The notes beneath the pieces were generated by a model. It saw only the letters and a list, made by a program, of their open reading frames with translations. It was not told where the DNA came from and ran no database searches. Shown in pieces: positions 13,403 to 42,564 of a stretch of 64,000 bases of DNA. The translations under genes and the position numbers were made by a program. Source of the stretch: Escherichia coli. GTDB lineage: Bacteria; Pseudomonadota; Gammaproteobacteria; Enterobacterales; Enterobacteriaceae. Each line of letters starts with the position of its first letter. Position 1 is the stretch's first letter. The stretch lies in assembly GCF_051903065.1 (NCBI RefSeq), contig NZ_CP178438.1. One strand, given 5' to 3'.

Positions 13403-13858
13403 CGGTTTATCCCCGCTGGCGCGGGGAACACGTGTGGCACTCTGCGTCTGGTATTAAATCATTCGGTTTATCCCCGCTGGCGCGGGGAACACCCGCCACG
13501 CCGTGCGCATCAACAGATATACGCAGGTTTATCCCCGCTGGCGCGGGGAACACAAACCGAAACACACGATCAATCCGAATATGAGCGGTTTATCCCCGCT
13601 GGCGCGGGGAACACCGAAAAGGCACCGTGCCGGTGACGTTCAATTCCGGTTTATCCCCGCTGGCGCGGGGAACACCGTTTTCACTCACTGGCAATCTCCG
13701 AGCAGAGCGGTTTATCCCCGCTGGCGCGGGGAACACGTGCGAATACCGTGTAAAAAATTAGTGTTATTCGGTTTATCCCCGCTGGCGCGGGGAACACTCA
13801 CGGTAGCGCCACTGCGCGTCGGTGACGGGCGGTTTATCCCCGCTGGCGCGGGGAACAC
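13403..13858 (-). CRISPR. CRISPR array 1 (type I-E): 8 repeats, 7 spacers of 32 nt
   Basis: 29-bp repeat CGGTTTATCCCCGCTGGCGCGGGGAACAC at 13403, 13464, 13525, 13586, 13647, 13708, 13769, 13830 (61-bp period). Third repeat starts with A. AT-rich leader on the high-coordinate side, so transcription is on the minus strand. Confidence 0.97.
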
Positions 13859-13954: not shown

Positions 13955-15164
<1,210 letters not shown>

Positions 15165-15168
<4 letters not shown>

Positions 15169-15815
15169 ACCTCTGCTCCGGGTTTGATCAGCATCAGACC
15201 ACAGCCGAACGCGCGGCTTTTGCCATACCCCTGACTGAGACGTTGCAGAAATAACCCGGGATCGGTGACCGTAAGCATCCCCGTATAATCCACGCTACTG
15301 AACTGGATCAGTTGCCGGGAGTTTTCCCGCCGCAGTTGCTGTTGTCGGTAGGCATCAACCGAGGTATCCAGCAGTGTAAAACCGCTTCTCTCCCCCTGCG
15401 CTGCCAGCCAGTCCAGCGCCGCCTGTTGTTGATGCAACCAGACATCACGCCCTTCCGCCTGTCCCCTCACCTGCCGTTTCGCCTCCATCAGCAGATCGTG
15501 GCGCTTGCCCGCTTTACAAATTGTGGGATTCGCCCGCAGGTTGAAACAAAGGGATTGTCCGGTACGCAGCTCCGGAGCAAATGACCGGCATTCGATAGTG
15601 AAAGTTTCACTTTCCGCCGGGCGTTCCTGCGAGAGGACAAAAAAGCGAAACGCACCCTGAAGTTCCTCCCGACGATAAAGAAATTGCCTTTCTTTGCCGC
15701 CAGGGAAGAGATCCCACAGCCACTGATGCATCACATATTCACCGCGATCCACCAGATGCAGCAACTGCGCAGGCAAAAGCTGAGCGGTATGTAAGGTTAT
15801 TCTTGAGAGGTACAT
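15165..15815 (-). CDS. cas6e: Cas6e (CasE/Cse3) crRNA endoribonuclease
   Basis: Position between cas5 and cas1; C-terminal G-rich loop SRAFGCGLM typical of Cas6e. Start placed at internal ATG (MYLSRITLH...); track ORF extends 46 codons upstream into cas5. Confidence 0.8.
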
Positions 15816-16543
15816 GGTTCCTCCTTGCTGAGCCACGGCCCCTGATTGACGGTGCGTTCCCCAAACAGCCACTGCTGGCGATTTAAAGGAACATCCCGGC
15901 GGCGTAATATTTTGCTCACGACCAGGCCGTCGTGCTCCCCTTCCCACCAGCATTCATCCTGAAGTTTCGGGAGTGAGACTTTCAGGTCGTGGAAATGATC
16001 CTGATACTGTTGGTATGCGTTACGTAAAACATCAGACGCGTTGCCTTCGAGCAGTAACGGCGCAAGTGGTAATGCCAGCGGATGACTTTTTCGCCCCAGA
16101 TAAAGAGGAAAAACTGGATGGCGTAAACCGCCCTGCAACTGTTCGAGGCTGTAAGGCGCATCGGCTGTTGTTGCCACCGCCACCATCCACCAGGCGTCGG
16201 TGTAGTAGTCGCGCCGGGAGATAATCGCGCTCAGAAGATCAGAGTCGCTCAACTCTTCGCGACGGCTGAAATAACGCGCTTTGCGCACCTCTTTTGGCAT
16301 CTGGATCGTGTGATAATCCCGTGCCCAGCGCGGGTTACGGCTGGCGCAAACCACCAGTGAATAGTGGCGATTAAACGCGTTTAAGCGTTCGGTATCATCA
16401 CGCCGAATCCCTACCCCGGCAGCCAGCAGACCCAGCAATGCTGAGCGCGAAGGCAGTTCATGGGTATGACGCACTTCGCCGGGGGCATCGACGCCCCAGG
16501 ATGCCATTGGCCCATGAAGCTGAAAAATCAGATATTGGCTCAT
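15797..16543 (-). CDS. cas5: Cas5e (CasD) Cascade subunit
   Basis: 248-aa ORF MSQYLIFQLHGPMASWG..., Cas5 N-terminal pattern; operon position. Confidence 0.85.
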   Translation of the reverse strand: MSQYLIFQLHGPMASWGVDAPGEVRHTHELPSRSALLGLLAAGVGIRRDDTERLNAFNRHYSLVVCASRNPRWARDYHTIQMPKEVRKARYFSRREELSDSDLLSAIISRRDYYTDAWWMVAVATTADAPYSLEQLQGGLRHPVFPLYLGRKSHPLALPLAPLLLEGNASDVLRNAYQQYQDHFHDLKVSLPKLQDECWWEGEHDGLVVSKILRRRDVPLNRQQWLFGERTVNQGPWLSKEEPCTSQE

Positions 16544-16553
16544 AAGCCGCCCC

Positions 16554-17609
16554 TTACGCGCAGATAAAGTCCAGTACGTCCTTCATGCTTCCCTGTTTGT
16601 TCATCACGTCAAAACTTGCGCATTCAGTCTTCTGTTCGTAGACCGTATTCATGTTTTCGCGAAGCGTTGTAATACGCTGCACCGCCACATCTAACTGACG
16701 GGTACCATTAATGGGTTCATAGAAAGCCGCCGCCAGAGAACGCGGTTGATCAGTGCCTTTTTCCGCCAGCGCCCAGGAGGCGTAGGCACGGCTGGCAAAG
16801 CTATTTTGTTTACCGGTTGGGGAAACTTTAAGCGCGGCTTCCGTAAAAGCGCGTATGGTCTGATTAGCTAACGCTTCGTCACCGCCGAGGTTTTCTACCA
16901 GCAGATCTTTATCAATGCAGATATAGGTGTAGAAAAGTGCTGAACCGAATCCGGTTTCTCCGAGATGCCCGGCACCGGCATCTTCAGAGGCCTGGCGCAA
17001 ATCATCAACGGCGGTGAAAAAATCATCTTCGACAATCGTTTCACTGACACCAAACGCATGCGCGACCTGGCAGGCGGCTTCAACATTAAACTCAGGTTTA
17101 TTCGCCAGCATACGACCAAACATAGCGATATCTACCGCTATACGGTCTTTACGTAACAACGCGAGATCTTCCTCTTTTGGCGCGCGCTTTTCTTCTGCCA
17201 GTTGATGGGCCAGCGCTTTTACGGCGTCAAATTCTGCCGGGCTGATATGAACTAATTGTTCAGTTTCGGCGTTAGTGAGCGGATCTTTTGGTTTTTTGTC
17301 GTTTTTAGCTTTCCCAAGATAATCTGCAATTTTTGCCGCCCATTCGATGGCTTTTTTCTCTTCGATTCCTTTCTCAATCAGGATAGTTGCCGCCTCACGC
17401 GCAATTCGCCCACTGCGAATACCAATATGGCCCGCCAGTGCCTGTTCAAAAAGTGCAGAAGTGCGCCACGCACGTTTCAGACTTTGTGAGGAAACGCGCA
17501 GACGCGTTGCACCACCCAGTACCACAGTTTTTGGCGCACCAGTATCATCACGGTTAAGGTTGGCAGCAGGGTAAGCGGTTAACAAATGAAGCTGAATAAA
17601 TGTTGTCAT
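16554..17609 (-). CDS. cas7: Cas7e (CasC) Cascade backbone subunit
   Basis: 351-aa ORF MTTFIQLHLLTAYPAANLNRDDTGAPK..., Cas7e N-terminal signature. Confidence 0.92.
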   Translation of the reverse strand: MTTFIQLHLLTAYPAANLNRDDTGAPKTVVLGGATRLRVSSQSLKRAWRTSALFEQALAGHIGIRSGRIAREAATILIEKGIEEKKAIEWAAKIADYLGKAKNDKKPKDPLTNAETEQLVHISPAEFDAVKALAHQLAEEKRAPKEEDLALLRKDRIAVDIAMFGRMLANKPEFNVEAACQVAHAFGVSETIVEDDFFTAVDDLRQASEDAGAGHLGETGFGSALFYTYICIDKDLLVENLGGDEALANQTIRAFTEAALKVSPTGKQNSFASRAYASWALAEKGTDQPRSLAAAFYEPINGTRQLDVAVQRITTLRENMNTVYEQKTECASFDVMNKQGSMKDVLDFICA

Positions 17610-17620
17610 GAGATAGTCCT

Positions 17621-18160
17621 TTATTGATTTTGTTCGTTATCGGCGTCGCCAGCCTGGTAATATTCCAGCGCCCAGCGGATACGGATAAATTCGGTTGGCC
17701 GCTGCTGGCGGCGGTGATGATTGAGCAGGTCGTCGCTCTCCTGACACCAGCGGAAAATATCGTCTGCCAAAGAGATAAGATTGACGGAACCGTTTAATAA
17801 TTTGACTGCGCGTCGTAACTGGCGCAGTAATTCATCCGGCGTTTTTACTGCCGACAGGCAAGTAAAACGCCCCTCTGACATTACCGCCGCCAGCTGTGCG
17901 GCAAAAGGCTGCCGTTCATCAATGGCTTTAACATTGGCGGCAACGGCGGCGACCAGTGCCAGTGCGGTAAAACGCCACTCTTGTGCTTCAATTTTCCACA
18001 AAGTGTGGGTCTGCATCAGCAGAGAACGAAACCCTTCTGACAAGCAAACATCATTAACCGTTGTGCTACGCCGCAGACTGGCACGATTGCCGCGTTTAGC
18101 CTGCAACTCTTCGTGCCATTTACGCAGCGTGGCTTTGTGCCCGTCTTTTACAATACTCAT
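17621..18160 (-). CDS. cse2: Cse2 (CasB/Cas11e) Cascade small subunit
   Basis: 179-aa ORF between cse1 and cas7. Confidence 0.85.
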   Translation of the reverse strand: MSIVKDGHKATLRKWHEELQAKRGNRASLRRSTTVNDVCLSEGFRSLLMQTHTLWKIEAQEWRFTALALVAAVAANVKAIDERQPFAAQLAAVMSEGRFTCLSAVKTPDELLRQLRRAVKLLNGSVNLISLADDIFRWCQESDDLLNHHRRQQRPTEFIRIRWALEYYQAGDADNEQNQ

Positions 18161-19725
18161 TCAGCAGCCTCCTGCTTTTTCTCCCTGGCGGCTTTAGCAC
18201 TTTGCTTCTCCGCCGATGTTGTAAAATATTTTTTGCGCGCGGTCATGACGCGTTTTAAATCAACGGGCTCATAAGGATTGGTGAATACACGCTCGTCAAA
18301 ATCCTGACGCGAGAATAACCAAATCTCCTTATTCCATTTGCTGAGTAATTCATCCGCATCCTGACCTTCTTCAATTTGGCGCACTAACCTCAGGAAGCGA
18401 TGCTGAGTTTTGTTCCAGAAGTCGATATCCACAAAACTGAAATCACCCCGTGCACCTTTTGGATCGGAGAACCATGCTTCTTTCAATGCACTCCGTAACA
18501 GACTTAGAATGCGTGAAGCCGTTTGCGCAGCCAGCCGCAGTTTCGGTATCTGGCCTTCTTTTTTATTGAGCAGCAGCGGGAAACGGTGTTCGTACCAACA
18601 GCGGGCTTTCATGTTGTCGAAATCATAGCCAAATCCCCATAGGCCTACTTTTGCCTGCTTGAGACTGCTGGCATTAAAGAGTTTCACCACCAGAGCGGGA
18701 AGTTCCGTATTGTTTTCTGACTTACCCGTTTCGATAAGGCCTAACCAGTCGCGCCAAATTAAACCGCCTGGTTGTGGTTTAACTGAGTAAAACTCGCCAC
18801 CCTCTTTAAGTGGTACACGGTAAGGCGTTAATGGATGCTGCCACATGGCATAATTCGCACCGTAATTTTTGGTCGTCATCAGGCTCAGAAGCGCGTCGTC
18901 CTGCTCACCGCAAATATCGCAGTTGCCGACTGTCGTGGTATTAAAATCAATACGAATACGCCGCGGCATTCCCCAGTACGCCTGGAGTTTATTGACCTGA
19001 TCATCGGTTACCACCGCACCGGCCAGTTCGCTGGTACGCGTCGGGCCAAGCCAGGGGAAAACCAGATCGTCAAATTTTTTGGGTAGCGGTAAGTCGGCTT
19101 CATCCTGCGGCATCACGTTGAGCCACAGTTTGCGCCACAAGGGGGCTTGTTGATTGCCCTGATACTCCTGCAATTCAATCAGAGTCGTCATCGGCCCACC
19201 GCCGCGTAAACCGGTTCGGTAGCCTTTGCCGCCTGACGGTGCATTTAACTGTAGGGAGAACAGAGCTAACGCGGAACAATGAGGGCATACGTGTTCAGTC
19301 ACGCCACGCTTAATAAAGTGGTCTTTATTAAACTTCGTTGTTTGAGCGCCGGGAATCTCAGGCAGTAATGAAGCAACCTGAACTTTATCTCCCGTGAGCG
19401 CCTCGAAATCCTGCATAAATGAAGGGGAATCTGGCCCAAACTGGAAAGCATGTTCTAAAGACAGCAATGCTTCCCGTAGCTTTTCGGCTTCCAGTCCGTC
19501 TTGCCAGATATCATCCCAACGACCATGATTTTTGGGCGCGAAACTGGTTTGTAGTAGCCCCAGTAAAAACTGCCATGCTGCTCCCTGGAGATCTGCTCGT
19601 GGCGCAGCGATATCGACAACATTTTCATCAGCCAGATCGACTGGCGCCAGTTTGCCTGTCGTTCCGTCTTTAAAACGAACGGGCAACCACGGGGTTGTCA
19701 GAAGTGAAAACGAGTTCATACGCAT
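18157..19725 (-). CDS. cse1: Cse1 (CasA/Cas8e) Cascade large subunit
   Basis: 522-aa ORF at head of the Cascade operon; alternative start 2 codons in (MNSFSLL). Confidence 0.88.
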   Translation of the reverse strand: MRMNSFSLLTTPWLPVRFKDGTTGKLAPVDLADENVVDIAAPRADLQGAAWQFLLGLLQTSFAPKNHGRWDDIWQDGLEAEKLREALLSLEHAFQFGPDSPSFMQDFEALTGDKVQVASLLPEIPGAQTTKFNKDHFIKRGVTEHVCPHCSALALFSLQLNAPSGGKGYRTGLRGGGPMTTLIELQEYQGNQQAPLWRKLWLNVMPQDEADLPLPKKFDDLVFPWLGPTRTSELAGAVVTDDQVNKLQAYWGMPRRIRIDFNTTTVGNCDICGEQDDALLSLMTTKNYGANYAMWQHPLTPYRVPLKEGGEFYSVKPQPGGLIWRDWLGLIETGKSENNTELPALVVKLFNASSLKQAKVGLWGFGYDFDNMKARCWYEHRFPLLLNKKEGQIPKLRLAAQTASRILSLLRSALKEAWFSDPKGARGDFSFVDIDFWNKTQHRFLRLVRQIEEGQDADELLSKWNKEIWLFSRQDFDERVFTNPYEPVDLKRVMTARKKYFTTSAEKQSAKAAREKKQEAAE

Positions 19726-20115
19726 CCTCTCGTAGAAAAGACCATCCCTGGTCGGTTGTCCATCACCATATTTTCAGATTTAGTTGGAGACTTAATCTGA
19801 GTCGGATAAAAGAAAAGACGTTGAATGTGATACGAAAATCGAACTTAGTTTGTCGTTTTGAAAGCAGACTTAGCACAAGTTGAAGCAAAAAAATCGACAA
19901 CATCGTAGTCCTCTTCACCGCAGCTTTTCACCGGTCACGAAAATACGCCTTGTAACGGTGTGACTCAACTCCGGATCCGGACATTATTTAAAATCTTTGT
20001 TTCTCATTAACTCATAGCAATTACCCATCTATCATAATCACAATAGCATTGATAAAATAAATCCATTCCCTGATTCTAGGGATTAACCAAGTTAGTGAGA
20101 TACAAAAATTGGTTC

Positions 20116-20144
20116 CTGTTCCCCGCGTCAGCGGGGATAAGCCC
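20116..20144 (+). repeat. Solitary degenerate CRISPR-repeat-like element in the cas3-cse1 intergenic region
   Basis: cTGTTCCCCGCGtCAGCGGGGATAAgCCc is 24/29 identical to the crRNA-sense repeat GAGTTCCCCGCGCCAGCGGGGATAAACCG. Stem CCCCGC/GCGGGG is intact. crRNA sense is on the plus strand, opposite to the cas genes and to both arrays. Confidence 0.75.
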
Positions 20145-20166
20145 TGGCGTCATCCGACGCCAGGGC
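20141..20166 (-). terminator. Strong hairpin 4 nt downstream of cas3 stop (possible cas3 terminator)
   Basis: GCCCTGGCGTC-atcc-GACGCCAGGGC, 11-bp stem; on the cas3 sense strand it is followed by the repeat-derived hairpin and a TTTTTG run. Confidence 0.5.
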
Positions 20167-20169
20167 ATC

Positions 20170-22869
20170 TCAATCAACCTTGCCAATCAATCCTTCCGTA
20201 GCCGAATACCCGCAGCTTTCGTCATCGGTGACTAAAATCACGTTTGCCATCTCCGGATCTTGCCGTTGTTCAATGCACCACTGCCTGAACGCTTCCCCTT
20301 CCAGTAAAGAAAATTCATCCCGATGTTTTTTCCACCAGCTTCGACGCACTCTGGCAACGCTCATTTCCCATGCGTGAGCACCGCTGGCATAAGGCTTCAC
20401 CACACCGTCAATACAGGTAGCCAGCCACAGGGAAACAGACTCTTCAGCCAGACGTGTCGACAGCTTTTCCGGGAGGTAATCGTTGATATTGGCGGCATAG
20501 CCGGGCCTGAAGTTCAGCATAAACTTTTTAGCCATTGCGCGATCGCAGTAATATTTGCCCACTTGCTCCTGCTCGCTGCGGGCAAATCCTTCCGGCATTA
20601 CCACGTCCTCACCGTAGACGGATTCAATAAGAAGCCGGGCTGCGTGTGGCATCTGAATAGCGCCTTGCTCACGCAATACTCGCTGCGTCAGCCAGATTCG
20701 CCCATGATCGGGGTAGACATATGCGCTGTTACGCATCGCACTACCAAACCATTCGTCACCCGGAGAGTCGTCCCAGACGGGGGCCAGAATCAGCAATTCA
20801 GGAGGGGAACGCTCGTCTTTTCCATCACGTTTTAACTGACCATTAATATCACGAATATGCCGTTGTAATCGCCCCGCTCGCTGGATCAGCAAATCAATGG
20901 GGGCCAGGTCGGAGATCATTTCGTCCAGGTCAATATCCACACTTTGCTCAATTACTTGTGTACAAACAATGACTTGAGATGATCTTTTTAAACTACAATT
21001 TTTACCAAAGCGTGCCAGCGTTTCCGTTTCAATTCGCTGGCGATCGCTAAAAGCAAAGCGGCTATGAAAAAGTGAAAGGCTGGAAGCAGGAATGACGCCG
21101 CGGGCAAGTAACTGACGATAAACCTTAATAGCGTCATCGACAGAATTCCGGATCCAGGCGATGCATTTCCCCTGACTTACCGCTGATTCGATACGCGCAA
21201 TACATTCTTGTTCGCTATGAAGCCAACCCACGCTCACGCTACGCTCAACGTCTTTGCGCGTCGCTACCCGGTGCGAATGCACATCGGATTTCGTGACATG
21301 CGTCAGCCAGGGGTAATCATCCTTTTCTAGGAACGGAGCTTCTTGCTGGCCCTCTGTGCCACGCGCAAAGGCGGCGACAAGTTTGTCGCGCTGCTGTTGA
21401 GATAACGTAGCAGAAAGCAAAATGACGCTGTTTCCGCCACGCACCTGTCGCTCAATCAACCCTTCAAGAATGTACGACATGTAAGCGTCACAGGCGTGGA
21501 TCTCATCAGCCAGCAGGATTTTGTTACTCAACCCCAGAAGCCGCAGATTATTATGTTTAAACGGCATCACTGCCATCATCGCCTGATCCAGCGTGCCGAC
21601 GCCAATTTCAGCCAGTAAAGCCTTCTTGTTACTGTCGGCAAACCAGGCTGCACATCCTTGACTGAACGCTTGTTCATCCGGTTCTTCTGACCCGACTAAA
21701 TCACCGGACCAGAGTGATTCATTAAAGCGTTCCATTAATGTACGGGCGCTGTGTGCCAGCACCAGGCTGGGGCGGGATTCTGGCGAAAAGAAAGCAAGCC
21801 AGGTTTTGACCAGCCGATCGTACATGGCATTGGCCGTTGCCATTGTTGGCAGGCCAAAAAACAAACCCTGAGCTTTATTCTCAGCCATCAACCTGTGCGC
21901 CAGGATAAGCGCCGCTTCTGTTTTACCTGCGCCAGTCACATCTTCCAGAATAAATAACTGTGGCCCTGGCTGGCTGATATCCAGATCCAGTACCTTTTGC
22001 TGTAATGGTGTCGGGTGCTCAATAAAAGGAAACAGCGTATTAATTCCGGTGAAAGGTGCGGTTTCTGCTTTTGGAGGAAAGACGGTTAAGGCGTTTTGAG
22101 CCTGAACTAAAGTTTTCTGCCAGTAATCTTTAATATTCATTGTCTGTGCGACGCGTGGAAAAAATCGCGTTGACGAACCCGTCCAGTCTGCGAGTACGAC
22201 TGTTGCAGAGATATACCAGGAAAGTTGTTTTAAAAGTTCAACGCCCTCGTCATCATCCCAGAATGTGGGAATCTCTATGAGCGGAAACAGTGACTTGATT
22301 TCAAGGAGAAAATCTCGTGCGGCAGCTTTGTCTTCAGGCAGGAAATTATCCAGTTCATCAATACGGTCAGGGGGCCGACCATGATGCCCGGTAGTCATGG
22401 GCATCCACATCGCTATTACACGTTTAAGTTTGCGAGTAGAGAGTGAAGAGGCAGGAAGCAATTCTTCGCATTCACTTAAATAATGATGCCACAACCAGTA
22501 GCCCAGCGTTGAATGAGAGATCTTTTCGTAATTCTTTCTTGCGCCTTCCGGAACCTTGAGTTGTGGGTGCAGGTAAAGTTGCTGAAATGAGCGGGCAAAT
22601 TTTCCAATATCGTGCCAGCACAACAACCAGGCGAAAAATTGAGCCGCCTGTTCCTTGTCAGAAATCCCTAATTGACGAAAATAATCAGCCAGCCCGAAGC
22701 AATTTCTTTTAACCATTAAATAGCCCATCGCGGCCACATCCAGCGAATGCCAGCAAAGAAGGTGATAGTCGTCACCCCCTTCTTTCTCGTCGCGTCGGGT
22801 TTTTCCCCAGAAATCAAAGAAAGTCACAATATTTTTATCCTTCAGTAAACTTAAAGGATATTTACGCAT
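20170..22869 (-). CDS. cas3: Cas3 HD-nuclease/helicase
   Basis: 899-aa ORF with N-terminal HD-like region and SF2 helicase motifs (DVTGAGKTEA, DEIH). Confidence 0.93.
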   Translation of the reverse strand: MRKYPLSLLKDKNIVTFFDFWGKTRRDEKEGGDDYHLLCWHSLDVAAMGYLMVKRNCFGLADYFRQLGISDKEQAAQFFAWLLCWHDIGKFARSFQQLYLHPQLKVPEGARKNYEKISHSTLGYWLWHHYLSECEELLPASSLSTRKLKRVIAMWMPMTTGHHGRPPDRIDELDNFLPEDKAAARDFLLEIKSLFPLIEIPTFWDDDEGVELLKQLSWYISATVVLADWTGSSTRFFPRVAQTMNIKDYWQKTLVQAQNALTVFPPKAETAPFTGINTLFPFIEHPTPLQQKVLDLDISQPGPQLFILEDVTGAGKTEAALILAHRLMAENKAQGLFFGLPTMATANAMYDRLVKTWLAFFSPESRPSLVLAHSARTLMERFNESLWSGDLVGSEEPDEQAFSQGCAAWFADSNKKALLAEIGVGTLDQAMMAVMPFKHNNLRLLGLSNKILLADEIHACDAYMSYILEGLIERQVRGGNSVILLSATLSQQQRDKLVAAFARGTEGQQEAPFLEKDDYPWLTHVTKSDVHSHRVATRKDVERSVSVGWLHSEQECIARIESAVSQGKCIAWIRNSVDDAIKVYRQLLARGVIPASSLSLFHSRFAFSDRQRIETETLARFGKNCSLKRSSQVIVCTQVIEQSVDIDLDEMISDLAPIDLLIQRAGRLQRHIRDINGQLKRDGKDERSPPELLILAPVWDDSPGDEWFGSAMRNSAYVYPDHGRIWLTQRVLREQGAIQMPHAARLLIESVYGEDVVMPEGFARSEQEQVGKYYCDRAMAKKFMLNFRPGYAANINDYLPEKLSTRLAEESVSLWLATCIDGVVKPYASGAHAWEMSVARVRRSWWKKHRDEFSLLEGEAFRQWCIEQRQDPEMANVILVTDDESCGYSATEGLIGKVD

Positions 22870-37794: not shown

Positions 37795-39273
37795 ATGTCG
37801 AAGAAATACATCATAGGGATTGATGGCGGAAGTCAGAGCACAAAAGTGGTGATGTACGATCTGGAAGGTAACGTGGTTTGCGAAGGCAAAGGTTTATTGC
37901 AGCCGATGCACACGCCAGATGCCGATACCGCAGAACATCCTGACGACGATTTATGGGCATCATTATGTTTTGCCGGTCACGATTTGATGAGTCAGTTTGC
38001 CGGGAATAAAGAAGATATTGTCGGTATTGGTCTGGGATCCATCCGTTGCTGCCGTGCGTTATTGAAAGCCGATGGCACGCCAGCTGCGCCATTGATTAGC
38101 TGGCAGGATGCACGCGTAACGCGTCCCTACGAACACACTAATCCTGACGTGGCATATGTCACCTCTTTTTCGGGTTATCTAACGCATCGCTTAACCGGCG
38201 AGTTTAAAGACAATATCGCCAACTATTTTGGTCAGTGGCCAGTGGATTATAAGAGCTGGGCATGGAGCGAAGATGCTGCGGTAATGGAGAAGTTTAATAT
38301 CCCTCGTCATATGCTGTTTGATGTGCAAATGCCTGGCACCGTCCTCGGACATATCACACCACAAGCCGCACTGGCGACACATTTCCCGGCAGGGCTGCCG
38401 GTTGTTTGTACCACCAGTGATAAACCGGTAGAAGCTCTGGGAGCCGGATTACTGGATGATGAAACGGCGGTGATTTCTCTTGGCACCTACATCGCGCTGA
38501 TGATGAACGGTAAAGCACTGCCGAAAGATCCGGTGGCGTACTGGCCGATTATGTCTTCTATACCGGAAACATTGCTGTATGAAGGGTACGGTATCCGTAA
38601 AGGCATGTGGACGGTGAGCTGGCTACGCGACATGTTAGGCGAGTCGTTAATTCAGGATGCCAAAGCACAGGATCTTTCACCGGAAGATTTGCTCAACAAA
38701 AAAGCTTCTTGTGTGCCGCCTGGCTGTAATGGTCTGATGACGGTGCTGGACTGGCTGACCAACCCGTGGGAACCCTACAAACGTGGGATTATGATCGGCT
38801 TTGATTCCAGCATGGATTACACATGGATATATCGTTCGATACTGGAAAGCGTGGCGCTGACGCTGAAGAACAATTACGACAATATGTGTAATGAAATGAA
38901 TCACTTTGCAAAGCATGTGATCATTACTGGCGGCGGTTCGAACAGCGATCTATTTATGCAAATTTTTGCCGACGTGTTCAACCTTCCGGCACGCCGTAAC
39001 GCCATTAACGGTTGTGCAAGTCTGGGGGCAGCGATCAATACGGCGGTAGGTCTGGGGCTATACCCGGATTACGCAACGGCTGTCGACAAAATGGTTCGCG
39101 TGAAAGATATCTTTATGCCTGTTGAGAGCAATGCCAAACGCTACGACGCGATGAATAAAGGTATTTTCAAAGCCCTAACCAAACATACTGATGTGATCCT
39201 GAAAAAATCGTATGAAGTGATGCATGGGGAATTGGGGAATGCGGATTCGATCCAGAGCTGGTCGAATGCGTAA
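37795..39273 (+). CDS. ygcE: FGGY-family carbohydrate kinase
   Basis: 492-aa ORF MSKKYIIGIDGGSQSTKVVMYD..., FGGY kinase N-terminus. Confidence 0.88.
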   Translation: MSKKYIIGIDGGSQSTKVVMYDLEGNVVCEGKGLLQPMHTPDADTAEHPDDDLWASLCFAGHDLMSQFAGNKEDIVGIGLGSIRCCRALLKADGTPAAPLISWQDARVTRPYEHTNPDVAYVTSFSGYLTHRLTGEFKDNIANYFGQWPVDYKSWAWSEDAAVMEKFNIPRHMLFDVQMPGTVLGHITPQAALATHFPAGLPVVCTTSDKPVEALGAGLLDDETAVISLGTYIALMMNGKALPKDPVAYWPIMSSIPETLLYEGYGIRKGMWTVSWLRDMLGESLIQDAKAQDLSPEDLLNKKASCVPPGCNGLMTVLDWLTNPWEPYKRGIMIGFDSSMDYTWIYRSILESVALTLKNNYDNMCNEMNHFAKHVIITGGGSNSDLFMQIFADVFNLPARRNAINGCASLGAAINTAVGLGLYPDYATAVDKMVRVKDIFMPVESNAKRYDAMNKGIFKALTKHTDVILKKSYEVMHGELGNADSIQSWSNA

Positions 39274-39319
39274 GTGAGGAAGACCGGGCGGGAAACTGCC
39301 CGGCCTGAACATACCTGAA

Positions 39320-39458
39320 TGGTTATCCCCGCTGGCGCGGGGAACATAAGTTCGACAACTTAAAAAATGATAACAAGTCCGGTTTATCCCCGCTGATGCA
39401 GGGAACATAATAAAAACTTTAACTAGTTCGGTTTATCCCTGTTTTTACAAGGAATATT
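39320..39458 (-). CRISPR. Decayed CRISPR remnant: three degenerate type I-E repeats with irregular spacing
   Basis: tGGTT-ATCCCCGCTGGCGCGGGGAACAT (39320-39347), CGGTTTATCCCCGCTGATGCAGGGAACAT (39380-39408), CGGTTTATCCCTGTTTTTACAAGGAATAT (39430-39458); intervening segments 32 and 21 nt. Confidence 0.8.
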
Positions 39459-39519
39459 AACTACACTCGATGTCTTTAGAATAAAAGACAATACGAATCG
39501 CACTTTATCAATTTTCACT

Positions 39520-40576
39520 GGCTTTGTTGAATAAATCGAACTTTTGCTGAGTTGAAGGATCAGATCACGTATCTTCCCGACAACGCAGACCGTTCCGTGG
39601 CAAAGCAAAAGTTCAAAATCACCAACTGGCCCACCTACAATAAAGCCCTCATCAACCGTGGCTCCATAACTTTCTGGCTGGATGATGAAGCTATTCAGGC
39701 CTGGTATGAGTCAGCAACACCTTCTTCACGAGGCAGACCTCAGCGCTATTCTGACCTTGCCATCACGACTGTGCTGGTCATTAAACGCGTATTCAGGCTG
39801 ACCCTGCGCGCTGCGCAGGGCTTTATTGATTCCATTTTTTCTCTGATGAACGTTCCGCTACGCTGCCCGGATTACAGCTGTGTCAGCAGGCGGGCAAAGT
39901 CGGTTAATGTCAGTTTCAAAACGCCCACCCGGGGTGAAATCGCACACCTGGTAATTGATTCCACCGGGCTGAAGGTCTTCGGTGAAGGCGAGTGGAAAGT
40001 CAAAAAGCATGGCCAGGAACGCCGCCGTATCTGGCGTAAGCTGCATCTCGCCGTTGACAGTAAAACACATGAAATCATCTGCGCTGACCTGTCGCTGAAC
40101 AACGTTACGGACTCAGAGGCCTTCCCCGGGTTAATCCGGCAAACCCACCGGAAAATCAGGTCAGCCGCCGCCGATGGCGCTTACGATACCCGGCTATGTC
40201 ACGATGAACTGCGGCGTAAGAAAATCAGCGCGCTTATCCCTCCCCGAAAAGGTGCGGGTTACTGGCCCGGTGAATATGCAGACCGTAACCGTGCAGTGGC
40301 TAATCAGCGAATGACCGGGAGTAATGCGCGGTGGAAATGGACAACAGATTACAACCGTCGCTCGATAGCGGAAACGGCGATGTACCGGGTAAAACAGCTG
40401 TTCGGGGGTTCACTGACACTGCGTGACTACGATGGTCAGGTTGCAGAGGCTATGGCCCTGGTACGAGCGCTGAACAAAATGACGAAAGCAGGTATGCCTG
40501 AAAGCGTGCGTATTGCCTGAAAACACAACCCGCTACGGGGGAGACTTACCCGAAATCTGATTTATTCAACAAAGCC
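39520..40576 (+). mobile_element. IS903-family (IS5 superfamily) insertion sequence, 1057 bp, intact, with 9-bp target site duplication
   Basis: 18-bp terminal inverted repeats GGCTTTGTTGAATAAATC at 39520-39537 and (reverse complement) 40559-40576. Direct repeat ATTTTCACT at 39511-39519 and 40577-40585. One transposase ORF spans the element. Confidence 0.93.
39597..40520 (+). CDS. IS903-family DDE transposase
   Basis: Open frame from 39552 (TTG) in the track; likely start GTG 39597, giving ~307 aa. Start assignment is uncertain. Confidence 0.85.
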   Translation: MAKQKFKITNWPTYNKALINRGSITFWLDDEAIQAWYESATPSSRGRPQRYSDLAITTVLVIKRVFRLTLRAAQGFIDSIFSLMNVPLRCPDYSCVSRRAKSVNVSFKTPTRGEIAHLVIDSTGLKVFGEGEWKVKKHGQERRRIWRKLHLAVDSKTHEIICADLSLNNVTDSEAFPGLIRQTHRKIRSAAADGAYDTRLCHDELRRKKISALIPPRKGAGYWPGEYADRNRAVANQRMTGSNARWKWTTDYNRRSIAETAMYRVKQLFGGSLTLRDYDGQVAEAMALVRALNKMTKAGMPESVRIA

Positions 40577-40976
40577 ATTTTCACTTAAAGTATGAACAGG
40601 ATATCTTTATTCATAAGAACTATTCATCAACAGCGTATAGAGGCGGTTATGTAAAACCACTCATTAGCCTCAAAACAAAGACAAATTTCCAGATTTATTA
40701 CTTAATCAATGAATAACAAGCTTAAAAAATACACTGTTATTCTAAAGAAAAAATTAACAGGCATTAATTAATATTAAAAAAATAATATATTAAAATTTCT
40801 TAACGGTTTAAGGATTATACAAATAACACTTTGATTAAATTTGATTTTTTGTATCGATAATTGTGAACTTATCTGGCATGGGGAACTATTTTGAACATGA
40901 GGTGTTACGTGGATATGTTGCTTATTACAAGTACAGCTAATATAAAAACTTGAGAAAGAGATAACGGGTTATATGG

Positions 40977-41554
40977 TGGTTTATCCCCGCTGGCGCGGGG
41001 AACTCGTACTGACGGATAAAAATAATACCTTTTGCGGCGGTTTATCCCCGCTGGCGCGGGGAACTCGTCAACGTTTTTCATGTGGGCATGAGTTGGGGCG
41101 GTTTATCCCCGCTGGCGCGGGGAACTCTATTCGGCCTCGTGCTGGTCGTGACAAAATACCGGTTTATCCCCGCTAGCGCGGGGAACTCTGGCGATATTGC
41201 CTACCGCAACAAAGAAAATACGGTTTATCCCCGCTAGCGCGGGGAACTCATCCACGAATCCAGTGCAAATGAGTTTGTTGGCGGTTTATCCCCGCTAGCG
41301 CGGGGAACTCATTGTGACTACCACCGATAACCCCGCAACCACCGGTTTATCCCCGCTAGCGCGGGGAACTCCTGCATTCGCCTGCGGTTATCAGATCGCT
41401 AAACGGTTTATCCCCGCTAGCGCGGGGAACTCGCTGCCATTACTTCCCGCCAGCGTTGCTCTGGCGGTTTATCCCCGCTAGCGCGGGGAACTCGCAGAGA
41501 ATCGTTCGATTGCCCCTACATCTTCCGGTTTATCCCCGCTGGCGCGGGGAACTC
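40977..41554 (-). CRISPR. CRISPR array 2 (type I-E): 10 repeats, 9 spacers of 32 nt
   Basis: 29-bp repeat CGGTTTATCCCCGCTGGCGCGGGGAACTC at 40977, 41038, 41099, 41160, 41221, 41282, 41343, 41404, 41465, 41526. Repeats 4-9 have CTAGCGC instead of CTGGCGC; repeat 1 starts with T. Leader on the high-coordinate side. Confidence 0.97.
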
Positions 41555-41700
41555 TCTAAACATAACCTATTATTAATTAATGATTTTTTAAGCCAGTCAC
41601 AATCTACCAACTTTACAGTATCACACAAACAACACATCCATTATGTTAAAGAGCGCTTAATCCATTGATTAAAAAGGTAAATATTTAAAATAACTCTATA
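41555..41700 (-). promoter_or_regulatory. CRISPR array 2 leader (AT-rich)
   Basis: AT-rich; contains CAATCTACCAAC about 45-58 nt from the first repeat as in leader 1, and a second similar copy AAAATCTACCAAAC further out. Confidence 0.65.
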
Positions 41701-41892
41701 CAAACTAAAATCTACCAAACTTTACCGCAATAATTTTCACTCCAACGAAAAATTAACGCCACAGAATTTGTAGAGAATGATAATGATTAGTCCAGGATGG
41801 GCAAAATGGAGGTTTTTCAGAGGCGACAAAGAATATAAATGAGTAGAAGTCTTTACAGGTTCCACCCATTTATAACGCTTATAAAAGTTTAA

Positions 41893-42564
41893 TCAGGCAA
41901 TATTTAGATATTTATGTGTTTGCATCGACAAACGCCAATTACGCGCAATGCAGATTTCAATGCACAATCGTGTGGCATCATCCTTTTGGCTAATCGGCTG
42001 CAGTGCAATGACTCGCGGTTTATCATCGGTCAGCGTTGCCAATAGTTCATCCAGTGCTTCAATATCGCGTACGCGCCCCACTGGATGCTTGATTTCGTTG
42101 GCTCGCTCCAGTGCCTGTGACAACACTTCATAGCCGCCGCGCATGTTCAGCTTTGGCGATACGGTAACCCAGGTATTCGGTGTGCAGCGTACCTCATGAG
42201 TACCACTGGTTTCGATCTGGCAGCTAAAACCGTTCTTTTCGAGCAGATCAGTCAGTGGTAGCAAATCATGAATGCAAGGCTCACCACCCGTAATCACCAC
42301 ATGCCGCGCGGTGTATCCCTGGCGACTAATGACAGCCAACAAGTCTTCACTGCTCGCCGCCCCCCACTTATCACTCTCTTTGGTCTTCGCCAGAATGCTG
42401 AAAAGGGAGACTTCCCGATCCTCAAGCTTTTCCCAGGTGTGTTTGGTGTCGCACCAGGCACAGCCAACCGGGCATCCCTGTAAACGAATAAAAATGGCGG
42501 GGACGCCGGTAAAGTAACCCTCACCTTGCAGGGTCTGGAACATCTCGTTAATCGGGTACTGCAT
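41893..42564 (-). CDS. queE: 7-carboxy-7-deazaguanine synthase (radical SAM)
   Basis: 223-aa ORF MQYPINEMFQTLQGEGYFTGVPAIFIRLQGCPVGCAWCDTK... Confidence 0.95.
   Translation of the reverse strand: MQYPINEMFQTLQGEGYFTGVPAIFIRLQGCPVGCAWCDTKHTWEKLEDREVSLFSILAKTKESDKWGAASSEDLLAVISRQGYTARHVVITGGEPCIHDLLPLTDLLEKNGFSCQIETSGTHEVRCTPNTWVTVSPKLNMRGGYEVLSQALERANEIKHPVGRVRDIEALDELLATLTDDKPRVIALQPISQKDDATRLCIEICIARNWRLSMQTHKYLNIA

Follow-up and report, generated by a model that had tools for sequence, protein, structure and literature searches.

IS903B is a member of the IS903 group of the IS5 family and an isoform of IS903 (from Tn903) and of IS102, isoforms being defined in ISfinder by at least 95 % DNA identity to the reference element. 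In the established biology of IS903, the transposase binds the element ends, the 3'-OH ends are transferred to target strands cut 9 bp apart, and the remaining gaps are repaired. IS903B is 1057 bp long and is flanked by 9-bp direct repeats (PMC10513040), and a 9-bp target-site duplication is given for IS903 in Table 1 of PMC2577343, which also lists the target consensus WTTYA-N9-TRAAW with reference to Hu & Derbyshire (1998) and to Hu et al. (2001). Both cut-and-paste and replicative pathways can be used by IS903 (PMC13224724, discussion). The current mobility of IS903B, including hops from plasmid to chromosome with 9-bp direct repeats as well as deletions, has been documented (PMC10513040; PMC13224724), and in Klebsiella its insertions have been linked to colistin resistance (mgrB) and phage resistance (wcaJ and wbaZ) (PMC10513040, PMC13224724).

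Insertion sequences have also been described in the type I-E CRISPR-Cas loci of Escherichia coli. Almendros et al. (2014; PMC3903273), from whom the names CRISPR2.2 and CRISPR2.3 and the layout of CRISPR-II, with clusters about 0.5 kb apart, are taken, reported IS186, IS1 and other elements in CRISPR-I and sporadic insertions in CRISPR-II. The latter were described as being 'with no apparent impact'. The same work attributes losses of cas-E genes in E. coli to IS elements (PMC3903273).

Here, we describe an IS903B copy in the CRISPR-II locus of an E. coli chromosome, within a window (the whole stretch of DNA analysed) of 64 kb. The structure and identity of the element, its empty site in other strains and its absence from relatives were observed directly. 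The reading that we favour, with a probability of about 96 %, is that a canonical IS903B has recently transposed into the non-coding spacer of CRISPR-II.

The CRISPR-II locus and the position of the insertion

The order of features in this part of the window is ygcE, a CRISPR2.2 remnant, IS903B, CRISPR2.3, its leader and queE, with the cas-E operon encoded on the minus strand. The ygcE and queE flanks, the two type I-E clusters and the leader beside CRISPR2.3 identify the locus as CRISPR-II. The intact ygcE gene, encoding an FGGY-family carbohydrate kinase (37795–39273, plus strand), ends 238 bp before the left copy of the target-site duplication ATTTTCACT. It is followed by the CRISPR2.2 remnant (39319–39461), which consists of three progressively degenerate type I-E repeats whose would-be crRNA sense is the minus strand. 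On the other side of the element, the right-hand part of an AT-rich spacer (40586–40976; 391 bp, 27 % G+C) leads to the CRISPR2.3 array (here also array 2), with 10 repeats and nine spacers at 40977–41554, which is transcribed leftward on the minus strand from a leader at 41555–41892 (minus strand). The queE (ygcF) gene occupies 41893–42564 on the same strand.

The orientation of the arrays was derived from their flanks. An alignment was obtained between the higher-coordinate flank of array 2 and the flank of array 1 that faces cas2 (z = 4.5 against shuffled sequences), and the two leaders are homologous and have the motif ACAATCTACCAAC in common; since this homology lies to the right of both arrays, both are read leftward. 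The element was originally placed in AT-rich DNA between decayed repeats and array 2, roughly 400 bp away from the end of that array opposite its leader, and this placement proved accurate. The tract is the CRISPR2.2–CRISPR2.3 spacer, the leaders are on the higher-coordinate side, and the distance from the end of IS903B (40576) to the first CRISPR2.3 repeat (40977) is 400 bp on the leader-distal side. The IS thus lies downstream of the array, and its transposase gene (plus strand) is convergent with CRISPR2.3 transcription (minus strand). Once the IS is removed, the spacer measures 449 bp (39462–39519 plus 40586–40976).

The spacer was also considered as a vestigial CRISPR2.2 leader, and this candidate was rejected: its alignments to the CRISPR2.3 and CRISPR2.1 leaders gave z = 1.35 and 0.52, respectively, against shuffled sequences, compared with z = 4.5 for the two true leaders.

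Structure and identity of the element

The complete element spans 39520–40576 (plus strand) and is bounded by the terminal inverted repeats IRL (GGCTTTGTTGAATAAATC, 39520–39537, plus strand) and IRR (40559–40576, minus strand), the latter being the exact reverse complement of the former. These two sites, matched with zero mismatches, are the only occurrences of GGCTTTGTTGAATAAATC in the 64-kb window, and shuffled sequence yields a mean of 0.11 matches even when three mismatches are permitted. Complementarity between the two ends drops immediately past 18 bp, which is the canonical length of the IS903 inverted repeat and agrees with identical annotated copies. The perfect 9-bp copies of ATTTTCACT at 39511–39519 and 40577–40585 directly adjoin the two ends of the element, leaving exactly 1057 bp between them; the chance of an exact 9-mer match at one fixed position is approximately 4^-9. 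The element differs from its surroundings in composition, with 52.7 % G+C compared with 27–37 % in the flanks.

Further matches to ATTTTCACT are present in the window, one in the CRISPR2.3 leader (41733–41741) and two elsewhere. The total of five, which includes the two copies that form the duplication, compares with 0.69 expected, and the surplus probably reflects the AT-rich composition of the DNA.

A single uninterrupted long frame runs along the plus strand of the element. The mechanically called ORF begins at a TTG codon (39552), while the actual start is taken to be the GTG codon at 39597, because the coding sequence in an identical RefSeq copy (WP_001118619.1, annotated as 'IS5-like element IS903B family transposase') has the same boundaries. 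The resulting gene (39597–40520, plus strand, with the TGA stop codon at 40518–40520) encodes a protein of 307 aa, which scores 357.6 bits against the NCBIfam model of IS5-family transposases NF033579 (cutoff 140) and contains significant matches to the Pfam domains DDE_Tnp_1_5 (PF13737) and DDE_Tnp_1 (PF01609). The residues D121, D193 and E259, which we take to be the IS903 catalytic triad, are located in the motifs VIDSTG, AADGAY and SIAETAM, respectively. The element thus carries, as is characteristic of the IS903 group, one ORF encoding a DDE transposase of the IS5 family.

The name of the element rests on the RefSeq and GenBank annotation of identical copies, so that nucleotide identity to IS903B is established indirectly, through annotated records that match over 1057/1057 bp at 100 %. 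At least 15 such plasmid copies, from Escherichia, Salmonella and Citrobacter, are found among the matches listed, and all of the identical plasmid copies listed are annotated as IS903B. Copies occur in more than 5000 plasmid records, and in 1566 of these the identity is 99 % or more. Judged by its sequence, the element is a full-length canonical IS903B that agrees with this element in every defining feature testable in silico. The original prediction of an intact IS903-family element, with terminal inverted repeats of 18 bp and a direct repeat of 9 bp, all perfect, and a single open transposase frame, is therefore upheld in each of its parts, with the coordinates given correct, the inverted repeats exact, the frame uninterrupted on re-inspection, and the family assignment narrowed to IS903B.

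IS903B matches are widespread in E. coli, being present in 1993 of the 5426 complete genomes searched, with a median of two places per genome and a maximum of 47. On some chromosomes, including NZ_AP045800.1, NZ_CP083585.1 and NZ_CP061764.1, 12 to 47 IS903B-like places are found. Such IS903B-rich chromosomes, which include those of the closest relatives of the window strain, indicate lineage-specific expansions of the element.

The empty site and the age of the insertion

The empty site was reconstructed by deleting IS903B together with one copy of ATTTTCACT, and the resulting 809-bp sequence was searched for in complete E. coli genomes. It is present, uninterrupted and at 100 % identity, in strains ECNB21-M121, 23CRST027 and 23CRST031, and it is at least 80 % covered in 4115/5426 genomes, always at the ygcE/CRISPR position. 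None of the 5426 genomes searched, not even those of the nearest relatives, contained the filled junctions. No array identical to array 2 was detected in these genomes either, the best matches having one spacer fewer or two more; the lack of both a filled site and an identical array places the source strain outside this collection.

Strains 23CRST027 and ECNB21-M121 are regarded as close kin of the window strain because they have the spacer backbone of array 2 in common with it. The former has the array minus one spacer and a cas operon that is 100.0 % identical over 9041 bp; the latter has the spacers of array 2 in matching order together with two more, and its flanking DNA is approximately 99.3–99.5 % identical. 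The suggestion that the insertion is recent is strongly supported by these comparisons, in which the closest relatives have the exact empty site, with a single copy of ATTTTCACT and at 100 % identity, and no filled site occurs in any of the 5426 genomes. The term 'recent' is used here to mean within this lineage, the closest empty-site relatives differing by approximately 0.5 % in the flanks and by one to two spacers.

Potential donors are abundant in these strains. ECNB21-M121 and 23CRST031 have 12 and 20 IS903B-like chromosomal places, respectively, the best of which in each strain is 100 % identical to the window element, and an identical copy is also carried by a plasmid of ECNB21-M121. 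The simplest history would be a recent strain-specific hop from a resident copy, with IS903B proliferating in the lineage. The copy is presumably still able to transpose, because it is identical to copies documented as mobile and the filled site is specific to this strain.

Two other accounts of the element conflict with two observations, namely that the duplication is perfect and that the relatives' sequence is restored exactly. One is that the copy is an old, fixed or inactive relic. This account is effectively refuted by the copy's 100 % nucleotide identity to widespread copies from several genera, its perfect inverted repeats and duplication, the open frame with its catalytic residues, and the lack of any filled site in 5426 genomes, nearest relatives included. 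The other, which we consider very improbable, is that the structure did not arise by simple insertion and instead reflects recombination between copies, a composite transposon of which the IS forms one end, or a repeated IS misplaced during assembly. IS903B is indeed multi-copy in the lineage, and copies that lack direct repeats owing to recombination have been documented (PMC13224724; PMC10513040). However, a recombinant or misplaced copy would lack a matching duplication, whereas the one observed here is perfect; excision of the IS and one duplicate restores the sequence of the relatives at 100 % across the junction, and the 64-kb window contains only one IS903B copy. A recent, simple transposition of IS903B remains by far the better explanation.

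Target choice and the proposed mechanism

The insertion site, TATCA|ATTTTCACT|TAAAG, matches the IS903 target consensus at 8/10 specified positions. Scores of 8 or more occur at 0.56 % of window positions and at 16/619 positions in the local AT-rich intergenic tract, and the site is one that the known target preference of IS903 would predict. In the proposed sequence of events, a full-length IS903B has recently transposed into the non-coding, AT-rich CRISPR2.2–CRISPR2.3 spacer of approximately 0.5 kb. The 307-aa DDE transposase is envisaged to bind both 18-bp inverted repeats and to free the 3'-OH ends, which would then be joined to target DNA cut with a 9-bp stagger, gap repair yielding the copies of ATTTTCACT on either side. 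The structural part of this course of events is borne out by the DNA itself. As donor, an identical IS903B copy of the lineage, located on the chromosome or on plasmids, is the most likely.

Consequences for CRISPR2.3 and neighbouring genes

The original prediction raised the possibility that the element supplies outward promoters. This is not supported by a consensus scan, in which no sigma-70-like outward site was detected at either end of IS903B, and the number of promoter-like sites in the region 39200–41900 (six) does not exceed that in shuffled sequences (4.4 ± 2.0), indicating no enrichment. The ORFs of the spacer near the insertion site are mechanical only, at 20–31 aa. In an Rfam search of window positions 39000–42000, no match reached the gathering threshold, and the empty-site locus yielded only sub-threshold chance matches, all inside the array. 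As no gene, RNA family or leader is interrupted, we infer that the insertion is selectively neutral.

DNA of 27–37 % G+C, such as the host tract of the insertion, is typical of H-NS-bound DNA. Such a setting could be taken to suggest that the insertion is consequential, in that an outward or hybrid promoter, the breaking of an H-NS-silenced tract, or convergent antisense transcription alters the expression of CRISPR2.3 or CRISPR2.2, and the location of the IS, 400 bp downstream of the leftward CRISPR2.3 with the transposase gene converging on the array, would fit such a scenario. We nevertheless regard it as improbable. Apart from the lack of outward sigma-70-like sites at the IS ends and a regional count within the range of the shuffles, any transcript leaving the element rightward would run antisense, not sense, to the crRNA, the leader and promoter of CRISPR2.3 lie untouched beyond the opposite end of the array, and the published survey saw no impact of IS elements at CRISPR-II (PMC3903273). 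The neutral insertion of IS903B into non-coding DNA accounts for the locus better.

The element had further been proposed as a substrate for IS-mediated deletions of the array. This is plausible in view of the published behaviour of IS903B, which generates large deletions through recombination between copies or through intramolecular replicative transposition (PMC13224724), but no such event is visible in the window. It is also conceivable, though improbable, that IS903B, while proliferating in this lineage, lands preferentially in the AT-rich spacer and that the present copy represents the first step in the remodelling of CRISPR-II, with CRISPR loss in progress. If this were so, an adjacent deletion, removal of CRISPR2.3 by recombination with another copy, or a change in H-NS silencing or in antisense transcription of the array might be expected.

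Other features of the cas-E operon and the arrays

Seven cas-E genes of the window (cas1, cas6e, cas5, cas7, cse2, cse1 and cas3; 14245–22869) are open and score above the cutoffs of the general type I-E NCBIfam models. Against the E. coli equivalog models, Cse1 scores 101 bits (NF007247, cutoff 576) and Cas3 scores 431 (NF007248, cutoff 569). We read these two models as representing the K-12 type, and the scores, both below cutoff, fit the 'E1' variant described by Almendros et al. (PMC3903273). The operon as a whole is of the common non-K-12 type and is at least 80 % covered in 2408 genomes; the 100 % identical operon of 23CRST027 is annotated as complete.

The intergenic region between cas3 and cse1 (19726–20169) is unusual in its length, 444 bp compared with approximately 97 bp in O157:H7. 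This variant is rare, being at least 80 % covered in 6/5426 complete E. coli genomes. The extra 350–390 bp or so contain a solitary type I-E repeat-like unit (20118–20169; CTGTTCCCCGCGTCAGCGGGGATAAGCC on the plus strand), which has two mismatches to the core of the array repeat and is inverted relative to both arrays. A hairpin with a 10-bp stem, CCCTGGCGTC-ATCC-GACGCCAGGG, adjoins the cas3 stop codon and is followed by the solitary repeat.

The repeats of the two arrays also vary, those of array 1 (13403–13858) ending in ...GGGGAACAC and those of array 2 in ...GGGGAACTC. Within array 2, a G-to-A change (GCTAGCG) is shared by a run of six adjacent internal repeats. Between relatives and the window, array 2 differs by internal gains or losses of spacers rather than by additions at the leader end.

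Comparison with known insertions

The insertion described here is real but ordinary, the presence of IS elements in CRISPR-II having been reported previously. It has little importance past annotation, in which the element should be labelled IS903B, although its strain-specific site offers a marker with which the lineage may be typed or tracked. It adds one more example of a sporadic IS in the E. coli CRISPR-II locus and fits the expansion of IS903B to 12–47 places per genome in some E. coli lineages. With regard to CRISPR stability, the copy is a plausible future deletion breakpoint.

In length, inverted repeats, duplication size, 307-aa DDE transposase and nucleotide sequence, the window element is like IS903B as already known, and the element itself shows no difference from it; only the insertion site is new, occurring in 0/5426 complete E. 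coli genomes. The IS903B events described in Klebsiella involve the same element family, with plasmid or chromosomal donors and 9-bp direct repeats. Those insertions, however, inactivate genes and are selected, whereas no sign of selection is seen for the window copy, which lies in non-coding DNA. The closest counterparts by location are the IS insertions in the CRISPR-Cas I-E loci of E. coli and Shigella (PMC3903273), which are likewise found in a CRISPR locus and are sporadic in CRISPR-II. IS903 is not mentioned in that survey (Almendros et al. 2014), and, in contrast to the insertions it describes, the IS903B copy reported here lies outside the cas genes, arrays and leaders, in the spacer between arrays, and has not been followed by a deletion.
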